Positions 44,201 through 59,418 of a stretch of DNA of 64,000 bases are shown here, in pieces. The position numbers were made by a program, and so were the translations under genes. The notes beneath the pieces were generated by a model. That model had not been told where the DNA came from and did not search any database. It saw only the letters and a list, made by a program, of their open reading frames with translations. Numbering within the stretch: position 1 is the stretch's first letter; each line of letters opens with the position of its first letter. The stretch comes from a bacterium (GTDB taxonomy: Bacteria; UBA8248), in NCBI GenBank assembly GCA_965204535.1, contig OZ241996.1, positions 1,088,001 to 1,152,000 of the forward strand, given 5' to 3'.

Positions 44201-45055
44201 ATGAAAGTCGTCGATACGCCTCAAAAAATGCGTGAGCTGGCCGAAACTCTCAGGCGGGATGACGCCCCGCTCGGGCTGGTTCCCACGATGGGAGCGCTGC
44301 ACGAGGGGCACAAAAGCCTCATCGCCCGGGCGAGGGAGGAGTGCGGCGCGGTGGTCGTGAGCATTTTCGTGAATCCGGCCCAGTTCGGGGCCGGTGAGGA
44401 TTACGACACCTACCCGAGGACTTTCGAGGCGGATCTGGAGGCCTGCCGGGAGATGGGCGTGGCCGTCGTCTATGCGCCAAGGGCGAGTTCCATGTACCCC
44501 GGCGGATACGACACCTGGGTGGACGTGCCCGGTCTGGGCGCGCCCCTTTGCGGGAGCCACCGGCAGGGGCATTTCCGCGGCGTGGCCACGGTCGTGCTCA
44601 AGCTGCTCACGGCCTGCCTTCCGCACCGGGCCTATTTCGGCGAGAAGGATTACCAGCAACTCGTCCTGATCCGCCGGATGACGGAAGACCTCGACTTAGG
44701 CATTGAGATCATTCCCTGCCCGATAGTCCGAGAAGACGACGGGATGGCGCTCAGCAGCAGGAACGCCTACTTGTCGACGGATGAGCGGTCGCGCGCGCGC
44801 GCCATCAGCGGCGCCTTGTTCGACGCGAAAAAGAAGGTGGCGGCCGGGGAGAGACTTTCCGCCGCCATCGTTCGGGCTTGCGTGGATGAGTTGGAAAAGG
44901 TTGAGGCGAGGGTCGATTATGTGGAAATCGTGGAACCGGCGACGCTCGAAAGGGTAGAGAAGATAAACGGCGCCGCCCGGATGGCCGTGGCGGCCTATAT
45001 CGGCGAAACCAGACTGATCGACAACATCTTGCTGGAGCCTGACGATGAGGCGTAG
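44201..45055 (+). CDS. panC: pantoate--beta-alanine ligase
   Basis: VPTMGALHEGH, SIFVNP, FGEKDYQQ, ALSSRN, RLIDN. Confidence 0.97.
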   Translation: MKVVDTPQKMRELAETLRRDDAPLGLVPTMGALHEGHKSLIARAREECGAVVVSIFVNPAQFGAGEDYDTYPRTFEADLEACREMGVAVVYAPRASSMYPGGYDTWVDVPGLGAPLCGSHRQGHFRGVATVVLKLLTACLPHRAYFGEKDYQQLVLIRRMTEDLDLGIEIIPCPIVREDDGMALSSRNAYLSTDERSRARAISGALFDAKKKVAAGERLSAAIVRACVDELEKVEARVDYVEIVEPATLERVEKINGAARMAVAAYIGETRLIDNILLEPDDEA

Positions 45056-47708
45056 TCTCCTCATTATCGCGGCGCTCGTCCTGGCGGGGTCCGCCCTCGC
45101 GCCGGCATCCCTGGTTCGGGCGCAATTCAAGGAAACCCCGCAGTCTCATCTCGAATTCGCCCTGAACACCTACCGGGACGGGTTTTACGAGCCTGCGATT
45201 GACGCCTTCCGGGCCTACTTGAAAGCGGCGGGCAACAGCAAGGCGGCTTCGATCGTGCGTTATCTGCTCGCCGAGGCGCTGCGTCGTGAGGATCGACTGG
45301 GAGAAGCGGTCGCCGCGTATCAGACGTTCCTCAAACGTCATCCCCGCCACGAAAGGGCCGGCGAGGTTCAGTTCCGCATCGGCGTGCTCGCCGAGCGGAT
45401 CGGGGAGGAGAAAGAGGCGATCCGCGCCTATTCTTCCGTAAAGCTTGGGCGCTACCGGATAGAGGCCGTCTACCGGGTCGCCGCGCTCAGGCTGGCGGCG
45501 CGCGAGTGGCGGGGCGCGGTCGCCGCGCTCGATGAATTCATCAAGTCGGTACCCAAAGACCCACGGGCGGAAGATGCCCTATTCGAGCGGGCCATCGCCC
45601 TGGATCACATACCGCTGATCAAGGAGGCCGAGAAGGCCTACAGCCTGGTCGTGCGCCGTTTTCCCAAGAATCCGCGGGCGCACGCCTTCAGGCTGCGGCT
45701 GGCGAAATTACAGCTTGAGCTTAAGAAGTTCGGTTCGGCGGAGAAGACGTTTGATTCCTTGTTTCAGGGACGTCCCGGAGAAAAAAAACGCGCCGACCTG
45801 AGACTGGGGCAAGCCGCGAGTCTTTTTGCGCAGAAGAAGTACCCCGAGGCGGGCGCGGCATTCGAGGCCGTTCTGGGCATGAAACTCTCAGAATCACAGC
45901 GCAGGACGGCGGAGCGAGGCCTGGCGTCCTCATGGTGGCGCGCCGGTGAATACGCTAAAGCCGCGCCGGCCTATCAACGGTTGATTCGGGAGCCGGCCAG
46001 GGACGGGGCCTATCTCCTGTTTTTCCTGCAAAGCGTCGAAAAAGCGGGGCTTTGTGCGGAGGGGGGCAAAAAATATCTCGCCTTTGCGCTCGACGCTATC
46101 GCCAATGGCGCGCCGCTGCCTTCTTCTTCACGTTTCCGGATGGCGGATTGCCTGCTCGGCGCGGACTTGAAGAAAGAGGCGCTGGGCCAATACGGCGAAC
46201 TCATCCGTCGCGCGCCGAACACGCGCGAGGCGGTGTGGTCCGGATTGCGCCTGGCCGACCTGCTCGAAAAAGAGCCTGAGCGAAACACGCAAAAACTTCT
46301 TGAGCGGTATGGGCAGATATTGGCGTCGTTCGAGGAGCTCAGAAAATCGGAGAAAAAACTCGAGTCCGGGATCATGCGGGCCGCGTATCAAGGCGTTCTG
46401 CGGGCGGCGTTCATCCACAACGCGCGAAAGGATTGCGCCCGATCCGTCGCCCTGGTGAAAGTGGTTCCCGAAGCGTATGTCCCCCGGGCCTTACGCGCGG
46501 AGGTGGCCTTCCTGAGAGCCGAGTGCGCGTGGAAAGCCGCCAGGTTCGATGAGGCGGGCGGGTATTATCGTCAAGTCGTCCCCGGCGGGAGACGCCCCGA
46601 ACTCAGCATCCGGGCGCGGTATCGCCTGGGCGAGTTGGCCGAGAAGCGCGGCGACCATAAAGAGGCCTTGAAGCGTTTTCAGGGCGTTTTGCCGCATCTC
46701 CCTGAAAAATTAAAGCGCGAGGCGCGCTTGAAGATCGGCAACCTGTATCGCGCGCAGGGTGATTTGCGAAATGCTCAGAATTTTCTCCTCCCGCTTGCAG
46801 GCGATCAGGCGGTGAGCGCTCCGAGGAGGCGTTCGATCTGGTATTTCCTGGCGCGAAATGCCGTCAGCGCGCGGGACTGGAAGGGCGCGGATGCGGCCTT
46901 TTCGTCCTGGGACGCGCTCGCCCCGCCCGAGCCCGGCGAGGGGCTGAGGCTGTGGGCGCTTGTGTTGTTCGAGCGAAAAGACTGTGGCCGCGCCGTGAAG
47001 ATGTCCGCGCGGGCGCTGCAGCATGAGAGGACGAAGAGCGAGAAGTTGGCTTTGCACCGGCACCGGGCGTCGTGTTTTCTCAAAGAGGACAATTTGAGGG
47101 AATTCGCGGGGGCGCTGCGCCATATTCGCACCCTTGCCCCCCAGGATGCGGATGTGGCTCTGAGGCTGGGGGAAGCCTTCGAGAATCTGGGAGATAACGA
47201 CAAGGCCGCGAAAGCCTATACGGATTTTCTGGGCAAATTCCCTGGAAACGGCAAAGCGGGTATGGTGGCCTTGCGGCTTGGTACGATTGAGCTGCAGCGA
47301 AAACGGCCCGAGGCGGCGTTGGCTGCTTTTCGAATCGCCGCCAAATCGAATGACGGGAACATTTCCGGTCCCGCCCGGTTCCAAATCGCAGTGTGGTTCG
47401 AGGAAGAGGGGGAATGGAACAAGGCGCTCGATATCTTCGAGTCGTTGATGCGCTCGGGTCCGGGCCATCGGGAGTGGGTGCGCTCGGCGGCCTGGCGCGC
47501 GGCGGCGATTCGTGAATCGCGCCGGGAGTGGAAGAAGGCGATCGGCCATTACCGAAGCATTGCGGCGCTCGAGAACGGACGGGCTTCGGCGCGGATGGGA
47601 GAAGAAATCAAGAAGGCGAGATTAAGGATTCGCAGGCTTGAGTCTTACCTGGCTTCGGTCAAGGAGCGCGAATGGAAAATGAAGAATCAAAAGCCGATGC
47701 TTCGATGA
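45045..47708 (+). CDS. secreted tetratricopeptide-repeat protein (887 aa)
   Basis: Signal peptide; many CpoB/BamD-like TPR units (YQTFLKRHP, VRRFPKNP, FLGKFPGN). Confidence 0.8.
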   Translation: MRRSLLIIAALVLAGSALAPASLVRAQFKETPQSHLEFALNTYRDGFYEPAIDAFRAYLKAAGNSKAASIVRYLLAEALRREDRLGEAVAAYQTFLKRHPRHERAGEVQFRIGVLAERIGEEKEAIRAYSSVKLGRYRIEAVYRVAALRLAAREWRGAVAALDEFIKSVPKDPRAEDALFERAIALDHIPLIKEAEKAYSLVVRRFPKNPRAHAFRLRLAKLQLELKKFGSAEKTFDSLFQGRPGEKKRADLRLGQAASLFAQKKYPEAGAAFEAVLGMKLSESQRRTAERGLASSWWRAGEYAKAAPAYQRLIREPARDGAYLLFFLQSVEKAGLCAEGGKKYLAFALDAIANGAPLPSSSRFRMADCLLGADLKKEALGQYGELIRRAPNTREAVWSGLRLADLLEKEPERNTQKLLERYGQILASFEELRKSEKKLESGIMRAAYQGVLRAAFIHNARKDCARSVALVKVVPEAYVPRALRAEVAFLRAECAWKAARFDEAGGYYRQVVPGGRRPELSIRARYRLGELAEKRGDHKEALKRFQGVLPHLPEKLKREARLKIGNLYRAQGDLRNAQNFLLPLAGDQAVSAPRRRSIWYFLARNAVSARDWKGADAAFSSWDALAPPEPGEGLRLWALVLFERKDCGRAVKMSARALQHERTKSEKLALHRHRASCFLKEDNLREFAGALRHIRTLAPQDADVALRLGEAFENLGDNDKAAKAYTDFLGKFPGNGKAGMVALRLGTIELQRKRPEAALAAFRIAAKSNDGNISGPARFQIAVWFEEEGEWNKALDIFESLMRSGPGHREWVRSAAWRAAAIRESRREWKKAIGHYRSIAALENGRASARMGEEIKKARLRIRRLESYLASVKEREWKMKNQKPMLR

Positions 47709-47715
47709 GGGATAA

Positions 47716-50700
47716 ATGATGCGATTCCCGGCGTATGATATGCGGCGCAAGCTTCTTCTCGGCCTGGCGGCGATATGCCTTGGTTGGCCGGGTGCGGAAA
47801 ATCATGCGTCGGCGCAGGGAAAAAGCGCCGCCGGTGGGGAGCAACTCACCATTTCCCTGCCTGAAGTCGTGGTGGAATCACCCAGCATCGAGCATCTCAT
47901 CGCTGCCCGCGTGCGGCCCGTGCCTCCCAAGCGACTGGGCGTTCGCCTTCCCCCCGTATTCATAAAACTTGAACCGCCATCGATTCGCCTGCCCGCCCGC
48001 CCGATACCGGTTGAGAAAAAACCGGACCAGGATTTGACGCTATACTTCGGGAGTTCGTCGGATGATTTTGTCAGCGAGAGTGAACATTTCAACACGGCGT
48101 ACGCCTATCTGCGCAAGGGCTCGCCCGTAGAGGCGCTCGTTCTTTTCGATGCTTTGGCGAATAAAACGAAGCTTCATTTCTGGCGCGCGGCGGCGCTCTA
48201 CTGGGCGGGAGAGACGCTTCTGGATTTAAGAAAACCTCAGGAGGCGAGGGTTAGAAGAGAGAGGTTGTCGAGCCTGCTGCTGGCCGACGGTCTGGACTAT
48301 GGGGCGGCCGCAAGATACGCCCTGGCGCAAGAGCGTTGCGAGGCGCGTGACTACGAGGGGTGTCTCGGTCTGCTGGAGGGGGGATCGTGGGAAAAAGGAA
48401 GCTTCGCCTATGAAGAGGCGATTTTCCTGAAAGGCTGGGCGCAGGCGAAAGCGGGCGCCGTCGATGAGGCGATCGAGACCTGGACGATGCTTGCGAACGT
48501 GAAGGGGCGGCTGACGTTTCAGTCCCGCGTGGCGCTCGGGCATATCCATCTCCAGAGAGGAGATCACGCCCGGGCGGAAAAACACTATGCGGCCGCCGAA
48601 GCGCTCGCCTCCGGCGAAGGCAAGCCTGACGAGGCGCTTCAGGGAGAAGCGCTGTACGGCATCGGGTGGACGCGGTTGTTCCTGGGCCGGGTCGAGGAGG
48701 CCAAGCGCGCTTTTTCTCTCTTCATGCGCGATCACCCGAAGCATCTACTCGAGGTTTTCGTACACGCGGGTTTGCTTTCCGCTGAAATCGAGTCGATCCG
48801 GAAATCCCGGAAAGGGTTGAAAGCGTTGAAAACCCGCCTTTCGGGATTTTCCCGCGCCAATCGCCGGAAAACGCTCGCCGGCGCTTTGCGCCTGCAACTG
48901 GCCTGGAAGTTGTTCCGGATTGGGGTGTATGAAGAAGCGTCCGTTCTGGCGGGCAAGGTAAGCGATGAGTTCCCGCTCGGCAGAATCTATCGCATCGCGA
49001 GAATCGTGGAAGGCCTCTCTCGATACCATCTCGGAAAAGTGAAGCGCGCCTACGGGATTCTGCGGCAGGGCGCGGATTACCCGCCGGTTTCCGCTCACCG
49101 GCTGGCGGAGCAGGATGCCGCCCGTTCTGCGGCGATGGGGACGGCTTTCGCCGCATTCAGGCTCCGGGATTTCAAGGGCGCTTTGAATGTGCTGAAGCAT
49201 TGGGCTTTCCTGCCGGAGAGGGGTTCCGCGGTTTCGCCGGATGGGCTGGCCATGTTGTGGTATGGGGAGGCGGCCTTCGAATTGGGCCGTCTCGATGAGG
49301 CGGCCCGCGCCTTCCGGGCGGTTCCCGAGCGGACGCCCGAGTATTACCGCGCCCTGGGAGGACTCGCGTGGGTCCAGTACCGTAAGATGAACTGGAAAGA
49401 AGCGGCGCTCGCCTTCGACCGCGTTTTCGAGCATAAGCCGGGGGGCGTCCTGGCGGCGGAAGCTCTCGCTCGTGCGGGAGAGGCCCGCTTCAACCTGAGA
49501 AACTACGACGGCGCCCTGCAATCTTTCGAAAGGATAGAGAAGAAATACAGAGGTAGCGACGTCGCCAAAGAGGCGTTGTACCAGAAGGCGAAACTGCTTT
49601 TCAGGCGCAGTCGTTTCGATGCGGCGGAGAAGAACCTTCATGTCTTTTTGAAGCGCTACCCCAAAAGCAAGGAGGTGGCCGAGGTACAATATATTCTGGC
49701 GCTGGTTCCCTTCCGCAAAGGCGATTACTCCCTGGCGCGGGAGAAACTTCTTGAGTTTCGCGAAACATATAGAGATTCCTCCCGGGCGGGCGAAGCGTAT
49801 TTGCGCCAAGCCGACGCATCATACAATGAAGGTCGCTACAGGGAGGCGAACCGGTTATATCGCCTCATGATGAACAAGTATCCTGCGCACCCGAAGTTCT
49901 CCGAAGCCGTCTATGGCCGTTTGCTCACGCACCTTCAACTCGGGGAGTATGCGAACTTCTTATCGGGCGCGCGTGCGTATGTTGAGCGGTATCCGGAGAG
50001 CAACCTGAGCATTTCCCTGGCTTTTCAAATCGGCGAGGTTTTGCTCACGCAGCGGAACACGGCAGGCGCTTTGAGGGCGTACAAGGATGTCTTCGCGCAA
50101 TACCCGCAAAACCAACTGGCTGCTCATGCCCTCTTGAGGATGGCGGGCATACATCGAAGCGAAAAAGATATCGACAAGGCCCTTGATTCATATGAGACTT
50201 TGCTGACCCGGTATCCGGCGGGCGGTTTCCGCGCCGATGGGCTGTTTGCCGTCGGGGAAACCCTGGCCGGCATCGGACGGTGCGCGGAGGCGAAGCAGAG
50301 GCTGACGGAATTCCTAGAGACGTATCCGGGCCATGACTATGAAATGCTGGCTCGATTCGCTCTGGGGCGCTGCCTGGTTCGGCTGGCCGAGGATCGCGCG
50401 GCGCTCTCTCACTTTGCGATGATCGTGAACAGTGAATTCGCGGGCGTGGATTTGCGCAGTCAATCCGCGCTCCTGGCGGCCGGGCTGTACAGGAAGCGAA
50501 GAAAATACGCCGATGCGCAGCGTGCGCTGGGCTTCGCCGTCGATTATGGAGCGCCGGAACTGGCGGCGGAGGCGTTCTTCGCGCACGCCCGGATATTCTC
50601 CGAGCGGAGAGAGCCGGGCGCGGCGGCAGAGTACTTGAAGTTGACCTATCGATACCCGGATCAGAAAATATGGGTGGCGCGGGCGTTGGGGCGGGCAGGT

Positions 50701-50850
50701 GAGTTGTATGAAAAAGCGGGGAAACGAAAGCTCGCCCTCCGGGTGTACCGGAAGCTGAGCAAAGTGGCGGAAGATACCGCATGGAAGCGGAAAGCTCGAA
50801 TCGCCATCAGGCGAATTACGAAACAAACCAGGAAGCGTGCGCGGCAGTGA
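47716..50850 (+). CDS. secreted tetratricopeptide-repeat protein (1044 aa)
   Basis: Signal-like N-terminus, Pro-rich stretch, repeated ..YP.S TPR units. Confidence 0.8.
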   Translation: MMRFPAYDMRRKLLLGLAAICLGWPGAENHASAQGKSAAGGEQLTISLPEVVVESPSIEHLIAARVRPVPPKRLGVRLPPVFIKLEPPSIRLPARPIPVEKKPDQDLTLYFGSSSDDFVSESEHFNTAYAYLRKGSPVEALVLFDALANKTKLHFWRAAALYWAGETLLDLRKPQEARVRRERLSSLLLADGLDYGAAARYALAQERCEARDYEGCLGLLEGGSWEKGSFAYEEAIFLKGWAQAKAGAVDEAIETWTMLANVKGRLTFQSRVALGHIHLQRGDHARAEKHYAAAEALASGEGKPDEALQGEALYGIGWTRLFLGRVEEAKRAFSLFMRDHPKHLLEVFVHAGLLSAEIESIRKSRKGLKALKTRLSGFSRANRRKTLAGALRLQLAWKLFRIGVYEEASVLAGKVSDEFPLGRIYRIARIVEGLSRYHLGKVKRAYGILRQGADYPPVSAHRLAEQDAARSAAMGTAFAAFRLRDFKGALNVLKHWAFLPERGSAVSPDGLAMLWYGEAAFELGRLDEAARAFRAVPERTPEYYRALGGLAWVQYRKMNWKEAALAFDRVFEHKPGGVLAAEALARAGEARFNLRNYDGALQSFERIEKKYRGSDVAKEALYQKAKLLFRRSRFDAAEKNLHVFLKRYPKSKEVAEVQYILALVPFRKGDYSLAREKLLEFRETYRDSSRAGEAYLRQADASYNEGRYREANRLYRLMMNKYPAHPKFSEAVYGRLLTHLQLGEYANFLSGARAYVERYPESNLSISLAFQIGEVLLTQRNTAGALRAYKDVFAQYPQNQLAAHALLRMAGIHRSEKDIDKALDSYETLLTRYPAGGFRADGLFAVGETLAGIGRCAEAKQRLTEFLETYPGHDYEMLARFALGRCLVRLAEDRAALSHFAMIVNSEFAGVDLRSQSALLAAGLYRKRRKYADAQRALGFAVDYGAPELAAEAFFAHARIFSERREPGAAAEYLKLTYRYPDQKIWVARALGRAGELYEKAGKRKLALRVYRKLSKVAEDTAWKRKARIAIRRITKQTRKRARQ

Positions 50851-50887
50851 TAATCGAAGGCTCACACTAACTCAAAGGTGGGTATTG

Positions 50888-51487
50888 ATGTTTGAATTTT
50901 TGGCCAGAGGCGGGGTGTTGATGATTCCGTTGGGTGTTTGCTCCATCTTGGCCTTGGCCATTGTCCTGGAGCGGACCCTGAATCTACGCACCAGGAAAAT
51001 CATTCAACTCGATATATTGCAGCAGGTCCGGGATCTGGTTGCGGAGAACCAGGTGTCCGACGCCATAACCCTTTGCCGGCGCTATCCTTCGGTCATGGGC
51101 AGGATACTGCTCGTTACGATAGCGAATCACGACAGAAATCGGGAAGAACTCCGCTCCGTCGTGGAGGATGCGGGCAGACAGGAAGTTACTACGCTCGACA
51201 AAAATCTGGGCGCCTTGGGAACGATCGCCGCCATATCGCCGCTCATCGGGCTGACGGGTACGGTTTTCGGCATGATTCGCACCTTCGCCATCATCAGCGA
51301 GAAGGGAATCGCTCACCCTAGCCAACTCGCGGGCGGCATCTACGAAGCGCTCATCACGACGGCGACCGGACTCGTCATCGCCATACCCACGCTCATTTTC
51401 TACAACTATTTCACCAACAAGGCGGACCGCCTCATCCTGGAAATCGAAAAGCATTCCTACCGGGTCGTCGAGACGCTGAAGAGGTGA
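50888..51487 (+). CDS. MotA/TolQ/ExbB proton channel protein
   Basis: LGTIAAISPLIGLTGTVFGMI and GIYEALITTATGLVIAIP. Confidence 0.93.
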   Translation: MFEFLARGGVLMIPLGVCSILALAIVLERTLNLRTRKIIQLDILQQVRDLVAENQVSDAITLCRRYPSVMGRILLVTIANHDRNREELRSVVEDAGRQEVTTLDKNLGALGTIAAISPLIGLTGTVFGMIRTFAIISEKGIAHPSQLAGGIYEALITTATGLVIAIPTLIFYNYFTNKADRLILEIEKHSYRVVETLKR

Positions 51488-51494
51488 GCGAGCG

Positions 51495-51920
51495 ATGAAA
51501 TTTCGTGATATCAGGCGCGTGCGGGCCGAACCCGGCATGACGGCCATGATCGACATCATCTTCCTGCTGCTCCTGTTCTTTGTCCTGAGTTCTTCATTCG
51601 TTCTCCAGCCGGGCGTCAAAGTGGAATTGCCGCGAACTGTCACGCAGGAACACCCCGTCCGCAAGGATTTGATACTCATCATTTCGCGTGATGAAAGGGT
51701 GTTTTTGAATAACGATCAGGTCCCCCTGAAATCGCTCTGGGGTCGGTTGATAGAAGAGTTGAAGGTGCAGCCGGAGGGCCTGATCATCATTCGGGCGGAC
51801 AAGGGCGTACCGCACGGGATGGTCGTGCAGGTGATGGATATCGCCAAGCAGGCGGGCGCTCTGCGCATGTCGATTGCGACGGCGCCGACGAAACGGGTAC
51901 AGAAAAAGACGACGAAATAG
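51495..51920 (+). CDS. ExbD/TolR family protein
   Basis: MIDIIFLLLLFF with the conserved Asp; IIRADKGVPHG. Confidence 0.93.
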   Translation: MKFRDIRRVRAEPGMTAMIDIIFLLLLFFVLSSSFVLQPGVKVELPRTVTQEHPVRKDLILIISRDERVFLNNDQVPLKSLWGRLIEELKVQPEGLIIIRADKGVPHGMVVQVMDIAKQAGALRMSIATAPTKRVQKKTTK

Positions 51921-51945
51921 CCCGAGGGAGGCCGGCTCAAAGACC

Positions 51946-52791
51946 ATGAGCTTTTCACTTATCCTGACGATTCTGGTTTCCATCGCCATTCATATGGGAT
52001 TGATTCTGCTCGGCCCTGCCGTAACGCTCGGCCCGATATTCGCCGGACAAACCGAAAGAATGGAAGTCGACCTCGTGCGCCGCGAGGTTCCCATCCCCGA
52101 AGCGCTGCTGCCGAAGGTGCTGCCCGAAGTTCCCCTGCCGGAACCGCTTGATTTGAGCCGTATGCTTCAAAAGCGCCCCTTGGGCGATCGGGACCTGAAC
52201 CTGGACGTTAAGACGAAGCTCGTAGCGCCCGATCCGGGGGAGTTGCCCGAGAGCGAGCCGCTCCCCGACGCCCCGGTTTTGGAAATGCCGAAACCGGTGC
52301 TTGCGCCCGGCGAGATACCCTCGATGGGCGCTTTGCAGGCGGGCGGGGCACTGGACGAAATCGTTTTGCCGGTAGATGAAAAGGCAAAGGCGGGGGAATC
52401 AAGGGGGTTGAAGCGCAGAAAAAAGGTGGCGCTGCCGGGTTCCGAAGCGGACCGGAAAATGCTGGAGCAATTATCGCGCCTGAATTTCTCCCGCTCCGCC
52501 AGGGAGAAGAGGCGGACGAACATCGCGGGGCCGGCGGCGAGGCGGAGAATCCTGTTTCAGCCCAAGCCCCCGAAACTCGAGAGGCTCGAGAGCACGACGG
52601 AGATCGTGCTGAAGTTCTGGGTGTTGCCCGACGGCACCGTCGGCCGCGTCATTCCGACCAGAAAGGCGAGCGCCTACCTCGAGGGACTGGCTTCGAACCA
52701 CCTGAAGCGCTGGCGTTTCAGTCCGCTTCCACCGGGCGCCGAGGACAAGGAGCAATGGGGCGAGATCGCCTTCCGTTTCCTTTTACGTTGA
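51946..52791 (+). CDS. TonB-like energy transducer
   Basis: TM with SxxxH (SIAIH), Pro-rich linker, TonB-C-like end (VLPDGTV...WRFSP). Confidence 0.8.
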   Translation: MSFSLILTILVSIAIHMGLILLGPAVTLGPIFAGQTERMEVDLVRREVPIPEALLPKVLPEVPLPEPLDLSRMLQKRPLGDRDLNLDVKTKLVAPDPGELPESEPLPDAPVLEMPKPVLAPGEIPSMGALQAGGALDEIVLPVDEKAKAGESRGLKRRKKVALPGSEADRKMLEQLSRLNFSRSAREKRRTNIAGPAARRRILFQPKPPKLERLESTTEIVLKFWVLPDGTVGRVIPTRKASAYLEGLASNHLKRWRFSPLPPGAEDKEQWGEIAFRFLLR

Positions 52792-53436: not shown

Positions 53437-54465
53437 ATGCGAGCCGTGGTTCTGCATGAATGGGGAGGTCCCCTGACGCTCGAAACGGTGCCCGACCCGG
53501 CGCCGGGCCACGGGGAGGTCGTGCTGCGCGTGCACGCCTGTGCGCCGGATCAGTTCGACGTGACCATCCGCGCGGGCCGAATCGGCGGCAAGCTGCCCCT
53601 CATCATGGGGCACGAGATCGCGGGCGAGGTGGCCGCACTCGGGCCGGGCGTCGAGGGATGGGCCGAGGGCGATCGCGCGGTCGTCCACGCCTATCTCACC
53701 TGCGGGCGGTGCCGCTTTTGCCGGTTCGGCCGGGTGACGCTGTGCGAGAATTTCGGGGGCTACTTCGGCGTGCACCAGGACGGCGGCTACGCCGAATACG
53801 TGCGGGTCCCGGCGGGGAACCTGTGCGCCATTCCCGATGGCGTGGGCTACGCCGAGGCCACGACCATCGTGAGCCCGGTGGCGACCCCGCTCAAGGCGAT
53901 CAAGACGCGCGCGGGCGTGAGACCCGGGGACGACGTGCTCATCGTCGGCGCCTGCGGCGGGGTGGGTATTCACGCCGTGCAGATCGCAAAAGCCTTCGGC
54001 GCGCGCGTGATCGCGGTGGACGTCGACGACGCCAAGCTCGCCCGGGCGCGGGAACTGGGCGCGGACCACTCGGTGAACGGCCTGAAGGAGGACTTCGCCG
54101 AGGTCGTGAGTGAGGTCACCGGCGGGGAGGGAGCGGACGCCGTGCTGGAGTTCGTCGGCACGGAGCAGACGCTGCCAAAGAGCTTCGCTTCGCTCGCGCG
54201 GACGGGCGTGTTGGTCGTCGTGGGTTTTCAGCCGGGCGCGGTTTTCGCGAGCGACCCCACCCGCTTCGTGAACGATGAGATCACGGTAACGGGTTCTCGC
54301 TACGTGAATCACGCGGAGTTGGCCGAGGCCGCCGACTGGGTCGGGTCGGGCCGGGTGAAGCCTGTCGTATCGAAGACGTACCCCCTGGCCGAGGTGGAGC
54401 GAGCGCTGGCCGACCTCTCGGAAAACAAGGTGGTCGGCCGCGCGCCGGTTCTGATCGATTCGTGA
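53437..54465 (+). CDS. zinc-binding (MDR) alcohol dehydrogenase
   Basis: GHEIAGEV, CGRCRFC-x7-C, GACGGVG. Confidence 0.92.
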   Translation: MRAVVLHEWGGPLTLETVPDPAPGHGEVVLRVHACAPDQFDVTIRAGRIGGKLPLIMGHEIAGEVAALGPGVEGWAEGDRAVVHAYLTCGRCRFCRFGRVTLCENFGGYFGVHQDGGYAEYVRVPAGNLCAIPDGVGYAEATTIVSPVATPLKAIKTRAGVRPGDDVLIVGACGGVGIHAVQIAKAFGARVIAVDVDDAKLARARELGADHSVNGLKEDFAEVVSEVTGGEGADAVLEFVGTEQTLPKSFASLARTGVLVVVGFQPGAVFASDPTRFVNDEITVTGSRYVNHAELAEAADWVGSGRVKPVVSKTYPLAEVERALADLSENKVVGRAPVLIDS

Positions 54466-54923: not shown

Positions 54924-55766
54924 TTACCCGACCGCCGGCGTCCAGTCGTAGATCCGCTGCAGGGCGCCTCCCATGAGAGTGGCGCGCTCCTCATCGCTCA
55001 GTCGGTCCGTGAGGCGGAACGGCGCCACGGCCTGCTCGTAAGTCAGCAGGTTGACCGCGCGCGTCCAGTCGGTGCCCCACAGGCAGCGGTCGAAACCGAA
55101 TGCGTCGAAGACTGTGAATAGCGGGTCCCAGATGTCGTCGTAGGGGTAGGGCTCGTGAGACAGCGTGCAGGCGCCGGTGACCTTCACTGCGACGTTTTCG
55201 TGATCCGCAAGCGCGAGGAGCTTAGGCAAGTCGGCGAAGGGCGCAGGTGGCACCGGCGGATAGAAGGGCTGCTCCAGACCTAAGTGATCGACCACCAGCA
55301 TCGCGCTCGGGTGCTCGCGCGCATACCGCGCGAAATGCTCCAGCAAGCCCCAGCCCATGAGGTTGACCGGCATGGAGGCGCGGGCGGCGGCGGCGAGAAC
55401 GCTGTCGATTCCCGGATGCTCGGGGTCGAGGCCGGGGCCGGGGTTCAGCATGATCCGCACTCCCACCGTCCCCTCCAGCGCGGCCCACTCGGAGATCGTC
55501 TCCGCCACGGCGGGGTCGGTCGGGTCGACCGGCTTGATCAGGGCGAACCGGCCCGGATGTGCGGCATGGACTTCCAGCGCATAGGAGGCGTCGTAGCGGT
55601 AGAGCGCGAACGGCGAGATGAGCACGGCGGCGTCGACGCCGACCGCATCCATGGCCGCGGCCATGGCCTCACCGGTGACCTCGGGCGGTCCCGGCAGAGT
55701 ACCGGCCCACGGCCGCCCTGGATGATCTTTCTCATAGGCGTGGACCTGAGCGTCTATCGTCAGCAT
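54924..55766 (-). CDS. amidohydrolase_2 family protein (lactonase-like)
   Basis: IDAQVH, VDHLG, FGFDRCLWGTDW. Confidence 0.85.
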   Translation of the reverse strand: MLTIDAQVHAYEKDHPGRPWAGTLPGPPEVTGEAMAAAMDAVGVDAAVLISPFALYRYDASYALEVHAAHPGRFALIKPVDPTDPAVAETISEWAALEGTVGVRIMLNPGPGLDPEHPGIDSVLAAAARASMPVNLMGWGLLEHFARYAREHPSAMLVVDHLGLEQPFYPPVPPAPFADLPKLLALADHENVAVKVTGACTLSHEPYPYDDIWDPLFTVFDAFGFDRCLWGTDWTRAVNLLTYEQAVAPFRLTDRLSDEERATLMGGALQRIYDWTPAVG

Positions 55767-56032
55767 GGCTTACGTCTCCGGGTTGGCGGGCAAGGGCGCC
55801 ATGATTCCGTTGCGCTACGCTACCACATCGGCCATTTTCGCCGCTATGCCCTGTGAGCGCCTCACACCCCGCCGGGGCATCGCCTCTACCCCCCTGACAA
55901 GGGGGGACCCAGGGGGGTGCTTTTTCAGTCGAGAGGGGTGTCCTTTCTGCCCCCTAAAAAGGGGGCTTTTTCAACAATCCCGAGGAGCGAGTGTTTGCGC
56001 CTTTCCCGACCGAGGAGAGAGGAAATGTGCGC

Positions 56033-56275
56033 CTATCCCCCCACGATAGGCGGGAACACGCAAAGTTCCGACCCTGCGGGTATCACGACGGATTTCTTGG
56101 CGTGCCGCCCGTCGAGCAGGACGATATAGGCTTCTTCATAAGGTATCTCGAAGCGGTCGAGCACGTCGTATATGCTGGCGCCCTCGGGCAGCGTGATTTC
56201 GGCGGTGCCCTCCGCATCCTGTTCGGCTGGCATCTTCTCCGCGAAATCGGCGAACAGTTTGATACGGATCTTCAT
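56033..56275 (-). CDS. MoaD/ThiS-family ubiquitin-like sulfur carrier
   Basis: 80-aa beta-grasp pattern, KLFA at the N-terminus, C-terminal FPPIVGG. Confidence 0.88.
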   Translation of the reverse strand: MKIRIKLFADFAEKMPAEQDAEGTAEITLPEGASIYDVLDRFEIPYEEAYIVLLDGRHAKKSVVIPAGSELCVFPPIVGG

Positions 56276-56344
56276 AGACAGCCTCTCGATTCTTTCTTCC
56301 CGGGGCTGCACTGCGCCTCGCGCATCATCTGTGAATGTGGATCT

Positions 56345-57583
56345 TCAAGATCCGCTCCCCGTCAATTCCCTCGCGCGAGCGAAGGCCGCCTCGATCACCT
56401 GTTTGAGGGGAACCCCGCTCTCCTCCGCCAGGCGCCTGCAGTCCTCGTATTCGGGCGCGAGATTCGTGAGGGCGCCCTCGAAGGTTCCCTTCTTGACGCG
56501 CACCCGGCCCCAGGGGAGGTCAACCTCCATCCATTCGCGCTCGGCGACCGCGCGACCCGTCGTGCGGCGGCGAACGCCTAGGGTCGACGTTTCGCGGAAC
56601 AGGAAGCGGGTCAAGGCGTCTTGTTTCGCCAGGGAACTTAAAAGCGTGAGCAGTTGTCCGGGCCTTCCCTTCTTGCCCGTCACGGGTATGGAGAATGCAT
56701 CGAGCGCGCCCGCCTTAAGCGCCCCTTCGATGACGTGCGGGAACAGTTCGGGGCTCATGTCGTCGATGTTGGCTTCGAGCACGGCGATGGTGGCGGGCGG
56801 CCTGTCGCCTACGGCGCCCGCCTCGCTTTCTCCCAGAAAGGCGCGAACGACGTTGGGGGTGTTTGGCTGGTCCTTGTCCCCCGCACCGTAGCCCACCCGC
56901 GCTATCGTCATCTCGGGCATGGGGCCGAAAAATTCCGCGCTCTCGGTGAGCAGCAAGGCCCCCGTGGGGGTCAGGGTCTCGCCTTCGAGGTCGCTCTGCG
57001 CCACGGGCGCGCCTTCGAGCAGCTTGGCGGTCGCGGGTGCGGGAACCGGCATCCGTCCGTGCGCGCATTGGACGAACCCGCTCCCCACCGGCAGGGGAGA
57101 GGCCGCCACCCGCTCGACGCCCAGCATGTGGAGACCCAGAAAATAGCCCGTGACGTCGATGATGGAATCAATCGCGCCGACCTCATGGAAATGAACCGCG
57201 TCGACCTCGACTCCGTGAATGCCCGCCTCCACGACGCCCAGGCGGTAAAACGCCGAGATGGCGCGGTTTTTGGGAGCCTCTGGTATCGGCGCATTTTCGA
57301 GGATTTCCCGAATCTGGCTGTAGGAGCGGCCATGGTGATCCGCGCCGTGGGAGTCGTCTCCTTCATGGTGATGATGGTGTGCTTCATGGGTGATGTTTAC
57401 CCTGAATTTTTGGGATGTAACGCCTTGTTTCAAAACGCTATCAGTGGAAAGGAAATAGCCGCCGATTTCCAGCTTCGCGAGTTCCTCTTCCAGGGCCGCG
57501 AAGTCCAGCCCCAAGTCTATCAGGGCACCCACGAGCATATCCCCGGCGGCGCCCGCGAAGCAGTCGAAGTAGATCGTCTTCAT
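56345..57583 (-). CDS. larC: nickel-pincer cofactor Ni insertase
   Basis: YFDCFAGAAGDM, His-rich loop, HFHEVGAIDSI, PVPAPAT, ETSTLGVR, PEYEDC; ATG 57583 overlaps the larB stop; single uninterrupted frame. Confidence 0.95.
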   Translation of the reverse strand: MKTIYFDCFAGAAGDMLVGALIDLGLDFAALEEELAKLEIGGYFLSTDSVLKQGVTSQKFRVNITHEAHHHHHEGDDSHGADHHGRSYSQIREILENAPIPEAPKNRAISAFYRLGVVEAGIHGVEVDAVHFHEVGAIDSIIDVTGYFLGLHMLGVERVAASPLPVGSGFVQCAHGRMPVPAPATAKLLEGAPVAQSDLEGETLTPTGALLLTESAEFFGPMPEMTIARVGYGAGDKDQPNTPNVVRAFLGESEAGAVGDRPPATIAVLEANIDDMSPELFPHVIEGALKAGALDAFSIPVTGKKGRPGQLLTLLSSLAKQDALTRFLFRETSTLGVRRRTTGRAVAEREWMEVDLPWGRVRVKKGTFEGALTNLAPEYEDCRRLAEESGVPLKQVIEAAFARARELTGSGS

Positions 57584-58338
57584 GAGCCGGCCGTTTGTCT
57601 GTTGATGAGGTGCGCCTGACAGGCCGCGCCGAATCCGTTGTCGATGTTCACCACGCTCAAGCCCGAAGCGCATGAGTTCAGCATGGCGAACAGCGCCGTA
57701 AGCCCGCCCAGGTTCGCGCCGTAGCCCACCGAGGTGGGCACCGCGATGACCGGGCATGACACCAGCCCTGCGACCACAGACGGCAGGGCGCCCTCCATCC
57801 CCGCCACGGCGATGACGGTGTTCGCCTCGCGCAAGGTCTCGACTTCCGCCAGGAGGCGGTGCAGGCCCGCCACGCCCACGTCGTAGACGCGCGTCACCTC
57901 CGAGCCCAGCACCCGCGCGGTCACCGCCGCCTCCTCGGCGACGGGCATGTCGGAGGTGCCCGCACAAACGACCGCGATGGAACCGACAAGAGCGGGCGGA
58001 TTTTCGCAAGGGATTTCGACGATGCGTGCGGTTTCATGGTGATTCGCGCGTGGGGAGAGTTCGAGCAGGGCTTCGGCCTGCTCCGCGCCCGCATGCGTGA
58101 CCATGACGGTCTGATCCTTCGCCATCAGGCTCCTGGCGATTTCGACGACCTGTTCCCTGGTTTTGCCCGCGCCGAAGATGACTTCGGGAAAGCCGTTCCT
58201 CAAGGCGCGGTGATGATCCACCCGCGTGTGGCCCAAGTCCTCGAAAGGCAGGTCGCGAAGACGCGCGGCGGCCTCATCGGGCGCGAGGCGGCCTCCTTTC
58301 ACCTGCTCCAGCAGATCACGGATGAGTTCTGGGTTCAC
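57580..58338 (-). CDS. larB: nickel-pincer cofactor carboxylase/hydrolase
   Basis: GFPEVIFGAGK, AGTSD, DVGVAGLHRL, PTSVGYG, NIDNGFGAA. Confidence 0.95.
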   Translation of the reverse strand: MNPELIRDLLEQVKGGRLAPDEAAARLRDLPFEDLGHTRVDHHRALRNGFPEVIFGAGKTREQVVEIARSLMAKDQTVMVTHAGAEQAEALLELSPRANHHETARIVEIPCENPPALVGSIAVVCAGTSDMPVAEEAAVTARVLGSEVTRVYDVGVAGLHRLLAEVETLREANTVIAVAGMEGALPSVVAGLVSCPVIAVPTSVGYGANLGGLTALFAMLNSCASGLSVVNIDNGFGAACQAHLINRQTAGS

Positions 58339-59183
58339 GAGAGGATGAGCAGATCGGAGTCGCGCTCGGTTTTAAGCACTTCGTTCATGCTCCCCGAGCG
58401 GAATCCTTCGAGATCGATGGTCACGTAGATGAAGCCGGCCTCTTTCATCCGGGCGATCACTTGCTGTGCGATTTCATCGTCCACCAGCCGCGCGATGTCG
58501 GTATTCGGCACCTCGATTCTGGCGACGTCGCCGTGGTGGCGCACCCGCAACTGCCGGAAGCCCAGCTCCCGCAAGCCGCTTTCCGCCTTTTCGACCTGGG
58601 CGATCTTCTCGGGCGTGATGCGGTCGCCGTAAGGGAAGCGGCTCGAGAGGCACGCCTGCGCCGGCTTATCCCAGGTGGGGAGGCCGAAGGATTGGGAAAG
58701 GGTTCGGATGTCCTCTTTCGTCATCCCGACTTCCATGAGCGGACTTCGCACGCCCAGTTCCCGCGCCGCCTGCATGCCGGGGCGGTGATCGCCCACGTCG
58801 TCGGCGTTCGAGCCGTCGACGATCACGGCCATCTTCTCTTCGGCAGCCACGCGGCTCAAGACGGAATAGAGCTCGTTCTTGCAGAAATAACAGCGATTCG
58901 GCGGGTTGTTCCCGAATGATTCATCCGCTATCTCGTCGGTGTCGACGATGAGGTGGCGAATCCCGATTTGAGCTGCGAGTGCGCGCGATTCTTCGAGTTC
59001 GGATGCGGCCAGGGTGACGGAGCGGCCCGTGACGGCGAGCGTGCCTGAGCCCAGGACGTCATAAGCCGCTTTGGCCAGAAAGGTGCTGTCCACCCCCGCC
59101 GAGAACGCGACCAGAACACTTCCCATCTCTTCGAGGGTTCGTTCGAGTCTTTTGAGTTTCACGTCGGGCTTCGCATCGCTCAA
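58335..59183 (-). CDS. larE: ATP-dependent sulfur insertase
   Basis: PP-loop FSAGVDST, RCYFCK, ACLSSRFPYG, RVRHHG. Confidence 0.95.
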   Translation of the reverse strand: MSDAKPDVKLKRLERTLEEMGSVLVAFSAGVDSTFLAKAAYDVLGSGTLAVTGRSVTLAASELEESRALAAQIGIRHLIVDTDEIADESFGNNPPNRCYFCKNELYSVLSRVAAEEKMAVIVDGSNADDVGDHRPGMQAARELGVRSPLMEVGMTKEDIRTLSQSFGLPTWDKPAQACLSSRFPYGDRITPEKIAQVEKAESGLRELGFRQLRVRHHGDVARIEVPNTDIARLVDDEIAQQVIARMKEAGFIYVTIDLEGFRSGSMNEVLKTERDSDLLILS

Positions 59184-59418
59184 GATGAGTCTCCGTTCGA
59201 CGGCTTGTTCCGCATATTCTAGCCCGTCCCGCTCTCTGAGGGCAACGCATCGACATTCAGGGCGCTATGGCGTATGACGACCTCCGGTTACCGGGCGGGC
59301 GGATGCCGCGAGCGCCCCTGATCGCCGGGGTGTGGCCAAATCGCACTGAATAGTCTATATGTTCGCCGTTCGGGGAGTTCAGGACGAGGACGATAAAAAG
59401 AGGGGTGAGGTCTTGGAC

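Follow-up and report, generated by a model that had tools for sequence, protein, structure and literature searches.

Which described systems come closest to a gene cluster that joins larE, larB and larC to a small ubiquitin-like carrier? One is a distinct class of MoaD proteins, class 3, that is linked to aldehyde:ferredoxin oxidoreductases (AORs). It occurs in tungsten cofactor neighbourhoods and is described, in the available part of that study, as strictly adjacent to AOR genes (PMC1779556). In Aromatoleum, aorD and aorE are listed as putative maturation factors (PMC6365974), and the addition of aorDE raised the activity of recombinant AOR from 4.5 to 16 U/mg, and to 85 U/mg with extra tungstate, while the tungsten content fell when aorDE was added without extra tungstate (PMC9295118). 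The function assigned to AorD-like proteins is itself putative in biochemical terms. Archaeal ubiquitin-like genes, for their part, have been linked both to AOR and to tRNA-modifying PP-loop ATPases (PMC2948915). On the nickel side, the three-cysteine LarE of Thermotoga turns over in vitro with E. coli IscS and cysteine (PMC9283937), a result that is restated elsewhere (PMC11796402). These statements are those of the available portions of the articles, as are all that we cite below. For the locus described here, we consider it fairly probable that the carrier is an AOR-type, MoaD/AorD-like protein for tungsten-cofactor maturation residing in a larEBC cluster, and that LarE is likely fed by a cysteine desulfurase.

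The locus lies in a window of 64,000 nucleotides, by which we mean the whole stretch of DNA that was analysed, and consists of known parts in an unusual, phylum-wide gene order. All four genes are on the minus strand (window positions throughout): larE (58335-59183; 282 aa; TIGR00268, 343.8 bits, E 5.5e-103), larB, encoding the carboxylase/hydrolase of nickel-pincer cofactor (NPN) biosynthesis (57580-58338; 252 aa; NF033503, 294.4 bits, E 4.4e-88), larC, encoding the nickel insertase (56345-57583; 412 aa from the ATG at 57583; PF01969, E 3.2e-137, TIGR00299 and NF052512), and the gene of a ThiS/MoaD-family ubiquitin-like carrier (56033-56275; 80 aa). The lar genes were named by NCBIfam profiles, with scores well above the cut-offs, and larC holds C1 and C2 within one frame, with the His-rich insert present. 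The larE/larB and larB/larC overlaps measure 4 nt each, and larC is separated from the carrier gene by a spacer of 69 nt (56276-56344), within which no terminator-like site was listed. The initial annotation had read this arrangement as overlapping larE, larB and larC followed, after a 69-nt gap, by the carrier on the same strand, and its description is exact by coordinates. Upstream, the divergent larE/hisC intergenic region (59184-59358) contains a weak sigma70-like match at 59216-59245 on the minus strand, a consensus match at 9 of 12 positions. This region is likely a putative promoter region for all four genes, and larEBC and the carrier gene likely form a putative co-transcribed unit.

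The carrier gene is real, as indicated by the predicted fold of its product and by purifying selection among its orthologs. The protein matches PF02597 (ThiS) with 30.6 bits at a cut-off of 22.5 and PF14451 (Ub-Mut7C) weakly, and it ends in GG, in keeping with the 80-residue MoaD/ThiS-like protein that had been annotated. Its AlphaFold model, with a pLDDT of 92, arranges five strands and two helices in a beta-grasp-like order, and dN/dS among the orthologs lies mostly between 0.07 and 0.19. In every family ortholog listed, a start codon stands where the 80-aa frame begins. A GTG at 56311 is an alternative start, which would yield 92 aa. G79 and G80 are invariant in 22 aligned orthologs. Five distant orthologs carry tails beyond the GG; decay was considered as an explanation of these tails and rejected, because such tails also occur on the MoaD and CysO-like proteins that these genomes encode. 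The carrier's sequence relatives in the PDB are MoaD and SAMP proteins; its profile matches 10 solved structures, with TtuB not among their names. The closest database relatives of the carrier are proteins labelled MoaD/ThiS from Nitrospinota bacteria. Profiles, tree and atlas clusters together suggest that the carrier belongs to an AOR-associated type (ThiS plus Ub-Mut7C).

LarE contains exactly three cysteines, C98, C101 and C178, which accounts for both the CxxC motif and the further cysteine noted at the outset. Its relatives in the PDB are 5udq and 8cnz, the latter being presumably connected with the Methanococcus LarE structures. By analogy with described enzymes, it is predicted to be a three-cysteine PP-loop sulfur insertase that binds a [4Fe-4S] cluster (PMC9283937). 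A counterpart of TtuA Lys137 was sought in LarE, and no position could be assigned to it. In a literature search that covered titles and abstract openings, and subscription papers to a small extent, no carrier protein feeding LarE was described, nor was one found by term search of the available parts of PMC9283937, PMC13524815 and PMC11796402.

How general is the arrangement? Among 51 genomes of the phylum in the genome collection, larC is found in 43 and an ortholog of the carrier (E < 1e-20) in 46. In all of the 40 genomes with both, the two are adjacent, so the arrangement, whose recurrence across genomes had been named as a check, is not unique to the source genome; by the listed coordinates, the carrier lies downstream of larC on the same strand and within about 160 nt in 40/40, often with a tight junction. 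The larEBC-carrier block is intact despite different flanking genes in G038 and G041-G045. This conserved adjacency is the strongest point for the idea of a LarE donor. That the junction holds throughout, even with different flanks, counts against the AOR-type reading, as does the observation that no ortholog in the phylum was encountered next to an AOR gene. The same observations, the position directly behind larC phylum-wide and the cohesion of the four genes where the flanks differ, together with the three-cysteine type of LarE, speak for a shared carrier, one that would serve AOR cofactor maturation and also deliver sulfur to the open iron of the LarE cluster in a TtuB/TtuA-like manner. 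There are precedents for such flexibility: in some organisms a TtuA-type enzyme works with TtuB and in others without it (PMC7138817), and the ubiquitin-like carriers of T. kodakarensis contribute both to the tungsten cofactor and to tRNA thiolation (PMC11323500). With a shared carrier, LarE could fall back on a desulfurase once the carrier is lost. All in all, we judge a shared carrier to be unlikely, given the evidence on its other side that comes from gene losses and from larC loci elsewhere.

Gene losses uncouple the carrier from lar in both directions. In six of the 51 genomes (G026, G029, G032, G033, G036 and G063; 90-98% complete), larC gave no match, while the carrier is intact at 80 aa; it sits in these lar-less genomes between hisC and maoC-tonB-exbD-exbB, the same syntenic site as in the source genome; a genome-wide search of five of the six found no match to larE. 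The persistence of the carrier under purifying selection in these genomes argues against a TtuB-like donor dedicated to LarE alone, the reading for which operon position, GG end and three-cysteine LarE can be adduced, and that larEBC simply went unassembled is unlikely for G029, the assembly of which is one contig. The losses of larC were probably two independent events; in a 23-row tree of flanking genes the two lar-less genera are not sisters, and uniting them was rejected in an AU test (p 0.029). For the carrier, four lar-less pairs gave dN/dS values of 0.068-0.113 and five lar-bearing pairs 0.074-0.194, 3 of 12 pairs having been set aside as saturated or nearly identical (G026/G032 and G023/G035 for saturated dS; G042/G045 with a dN/dS of 0.59 on a dS of 0.049, larE yielding 0.33 in that pair). 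That selection on the carrier is not relaxed after the loss of lar counts, as a weak test, against a shared role. In genus g5, some 200 nt separate hisC from the start of the carrier gene, the place that the start of larE has in the source genome. When the intergenic DNA on the hisC side in g5 was aligned with the window, no clear promoter homology emerged.

In the opposite direction, G039 and G040 (95% complete) possess larEBC, with the CxxC motif and third cysteine in place, and no carrier was found in them, their ThiS-family genes being only moaD, a cysO-like gene and thiS. The absence of the carrier beside an intact three-cysteine larEBC likewise tells against a dedicated donor, which we hold to be extremely improbable. 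The two are small (2.1 Mb) sister genomes and the only ones of the 51 without AOR. After the loss of the carrier, 2/73 conserved LarE positions are altered, versus 2/77 and 0/72 in control pairs; this lack of excess change in LarE, a weak test since it concerns one carrier-loss event, is a further point against a shared carrier. G021 is uninformative for carrier loss, as its contig ends within larC. G061 and G065 were excluded as losses of carrier or larC: the syntenic hisC ortholog is missing from them as well, their best hisC matches being 44-46% compared with 56-90% elsewhere, and the locus is probably unassembled; G065 has larA.

What links the carrier to AOR? AOR is found in 49 of the 51 phylum genomes, and among the 46 with a carrier none is without it. 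This co-occurrence is weak evidence, as AOR is nearly universal in both samples and larC co-occurs with it too, and the fact that carrier and AOR were lost together is suggestive at most, as this was one event in two small sister genomes. The closest paralog, a second copy in G038 that is 31% identical to the window carrier, ends a ferredoxin-AOR-flavoprotein-carrier cluster. G043 (93% complete) has two AORs, and apart from moaD, the cysO-like gene and thiS, its ThiS family comprises the lar-adjacent gene alone; G032 (91% complete) has kept the carrier with only one AOR match, which counts against the AOR-type reading. In a 62-row carrier tree, the lar-adjacent and AOR-adjacent rows group together, apart from the MoaE-, ThiG- and CysO-type rows, with a support of 94/48 over 88 columns, although the AOR rows had been selected for resembling the carrier, and the sampling is in part circular. 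The proposal of a LarE donor had presupposed a carrier apart from the AOR/Moco MoaD proteins, and this did not hold, as tree, neighbourhoods and the G038 paralog all place it with AOR-linked MoaD-like proteins. Since the carrier groups with AOR-linked MoaD and the losses uncouple it from lar both ways, the dedicated TtuB-like donor of LarE that the initial annotation envisaged is not supported; what is left of that proposal is the possible shared role.

Homologs outside the phylum bear on the same question. A genome scan with the single carrier protein returned at least 38 mixed loci, mostly canonical moaD-moaE, and no lar genes were seen at the loci among these matches listed. Outside the phylum, three of the five best-scoring loci among the matches listed flank AOR, and two of these three genomes have no LarE above the cut-off. 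The Anaerolineae, the class of G068, were selected since a match there flanked AOR; the phylum of G051 numbered just 2 genomes. In this sample of 121 kin genomes, the counts of which are not independent, a homolog occurs in 62, with AOR in 62/62 and larC in 36/62, and 33 genomes have larC without the homolog; overall, AOR is found in 108/121 and accompanies larC in 67/69. Among the best 30 of the 62 homologs, AOR lies within 1.5 kb in 18 and a lar gene in none; the other 12, with no AOR within 1.5 kb, count against the AOR-type reading. Starting from larC, no ThiS/MoaD-like frame was found beside it at 30 loci in Anaerolineae (30 of 69 genomes), 30 loci in the phylum of G067 (30 of 80 genomes) and 80 metagenome loci (the best 80 of 585). 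The sequence extended 500 nt or more beyond larC in 28/30, 28/30 and 66/80 of these, respectively, and the search profile recovered ThiS-family genes at 10/10 control loci. As 0/140 outside larC loci have it, the lar-carrier arrangement looks specific to the phylum in the samples searched, and its absence there speaks against a shared role.

The source genome itself holds five ThiS-family genes: thiS next to thiG, moaD next to moaE, a CysO-like gene in the vicinity of cysteine synthase genes, a gene behind an AOR gene, and the carrier studied here, behind larC. The annotated lack of moaE, thiG or AOR near the carrier is borne out, with the thiS-thiG and moaD-moaE pairs and the AOR genes all outside the window. 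Of three AOR genes, one has an adjacent ubiquitin-like gene and two do not, and the AOR gene nearest to the carrier is more than 1 Mb off on the contig. The carrier does not show the AOR-gene adjacency of the AOR-linked MoaD class, and because of this distance we class it as AOR-type on grounds of kinship rather than of neighbourhood. Elsewhere in the genome there are one copy of larA, two genes for ThiF/MoeB-family E1 enzymes, distant from the locus, and four class-V aminotransferase matches with candidate cysteine desulfurases among them. The single PF01171 match is TilS.

This inventory also bears on a third client, another sulfur-insertion pathway or a covalent protein modification, for which the lar position and the AOR correlation would be incidental. 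That the phylum ortholog is not seen beside AOR, that its loss together with AOR happened once and that some close homologs stand alone (L085, L118 and L121, as well as the 12 of the best 30 Anaerolineae loci) are in favour of such a client. On the other hand, ThiG, MoaE and cysteine synthase each have their own adjacent carrier, and no TtuA/NcsA-type client was found in the source genome and five lar-less genomes, which have one PF01171 match each. We regard a third client as distinctly improbable.

The AOR-type reading that we favour suggests the following scenario. Adenylation of the carrier's terminal glycine would fall to one of the two ThiF/MoeB-family E1 enzymes; the glycine would then become a thiocarboxylate, and the thiocarboxylated carrier would support the tungsten-pterin maturation of the two AORs that lack an accompanying ubiquitin-like gene. 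LarE would bind its [4Fe-4S] cluster via C98, C101 and C178 and take sulfane sulfur from a desulfurase persulfide, as Thermotoga LarE does with IscS in vitro. We propose that the carrier stays behind larC because it is dependent on the larE promoter. On this reading, conserved adjacency can mislead, and it is the gene losses that point the carrier toward the tungsten AORs. The alternative, an AOR-type carrier recruited into the lar operon and feeding both tungsten-pterin and NPN via thiocarboxylate docking on the open iron of LarE, is doubtful, and much would follow from it: if it is true, a route to NPN by way of a protein thiocarboxylate would be described for the first time, the supplies of the nickel-pincer and tungsten cofactors would be directly linked, and cluster-type LarE would gain a named physiological sulfur donor, where so far one has been demonstrated only in vitro and with a desulfurase from another organism (PMC9283937, available part). 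The four genes are a ready test system for such a shared role.

How does the locus then compare with the known systems? To the AOR-linked MoaD class and to AorD/AorE of Aromatoleum aromaticum it is akin in that the carrier is a small MoaD-like protein with a GG end, separate from moaD-moaE; its nearest homologs flank AOR, and it occurs only in AOR genomes in the samples searched. The aorABC-D order of Aromatoleum (PMC6365974, as far as its available part describes it) is matched by the G038 paralog, which follows ferredoxin, AOR and flavoprotein genes, and the likeness to AorD is one of description and gene order. While members of the class are strictly AOR-adjacent, the carrier instead lies behind larC and far from AOR. 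With TtuA-TtuB of Thermus thermophilus (PMC7138817) the locus shares the pairing of a three-cysteine PP-loop sulfurtransferase with a GG-ending ubiquitin-like protein, and the chemistry proposed for LarE follows TtuA; however, carrier and LarE have been lost independently here, and a partnership between them would be putative. The LarE of Thermotoga maritima, also of TIGR00268, has the same three conserved cysteines, and LarB, LarC and larA are likewise present in the source genome; its donor in vitro is E. coli IscS with cysteine, and the available part of that article mentions no carrier protein (PMC9283937). Finally, UblA, UblB and UblC of Thermococcus kodakarensis are likewise several paralogous carriers with partly specific roles in the maturation of AOR-family tungsten enzymes, but they are archaeal and deletion-tested, and a link to NPN is not mentioned in the available part of their description (PMC11323500).

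What enzyme does the nickel-pincer cofactor serve in these bacteria? LarA (PF09861) was found in 25 of the 51 genomes of the phylum survey, whereas larC is present in 43. In one family (f4), LarA was found in none of the seven genomes surveyed, while all seven retain larEBC; the client of the cofactor in this family is probably a non-LarA enzyme. The genome containing the window carries a single larA, at a locus outside the window (L009, G000:C2:2765172-2768741), whose neighbours, as judged by eye, resemble glycosyltransferase and cytidylyltransferase genes. This gene neighbourhood hints at a role of that LarA as a sugar-acid epimerase.

Within the window, the lar block has a convergent neighbour on the plus strand (45045-52791), in which a pair of long TPR-like genes precedes exbB, exbD and a TonB-like gene; this neighbour is conserved next to the lar block across most of the phylum. 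Two further genes, here an amidohydrolase gene (54924-55766) and a minus-strand gene for a 342-aa protein (53437-54465), are inserted 3' of the ubiquitin-like carrier gene in some members of the genus only. The latter had no family match in Pfam or NCBIfam searches; by eye it resembles a zinc-type alcohol dehydrogenase in which Asp seems to replace the usual catalytic zinc Cys. G+C hairpins at 55880-55975 separate the carrier from the amidohydrolase gene and may represent a dispersed repeat; a terminator-like site (55949-55966) lies on the plus strand, with the lar genes on the opposite strand.

Most carrier, MoaD and CysO-like proteins from distant families have variable tails after the GG (loci L076, L080-L083 and L348-L362), which implies a putative processing protease of the JAMM type. 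One genome (G038) combines 17 matches to the aldehyde:ferredoxin oxidoreductase (AOR) family with five to LarA. At two loci, a second ubiquitin-like gene (L119:6245-6607 and L120:2657-2938) accompanies an AOR gene and a GG-ending carrier. Lacking the GG and having an aromatic-rich tail, the products of these second genes are possibly of the type of AorE, a putative maturation factor of the Aromatoleum aorABCDE system.
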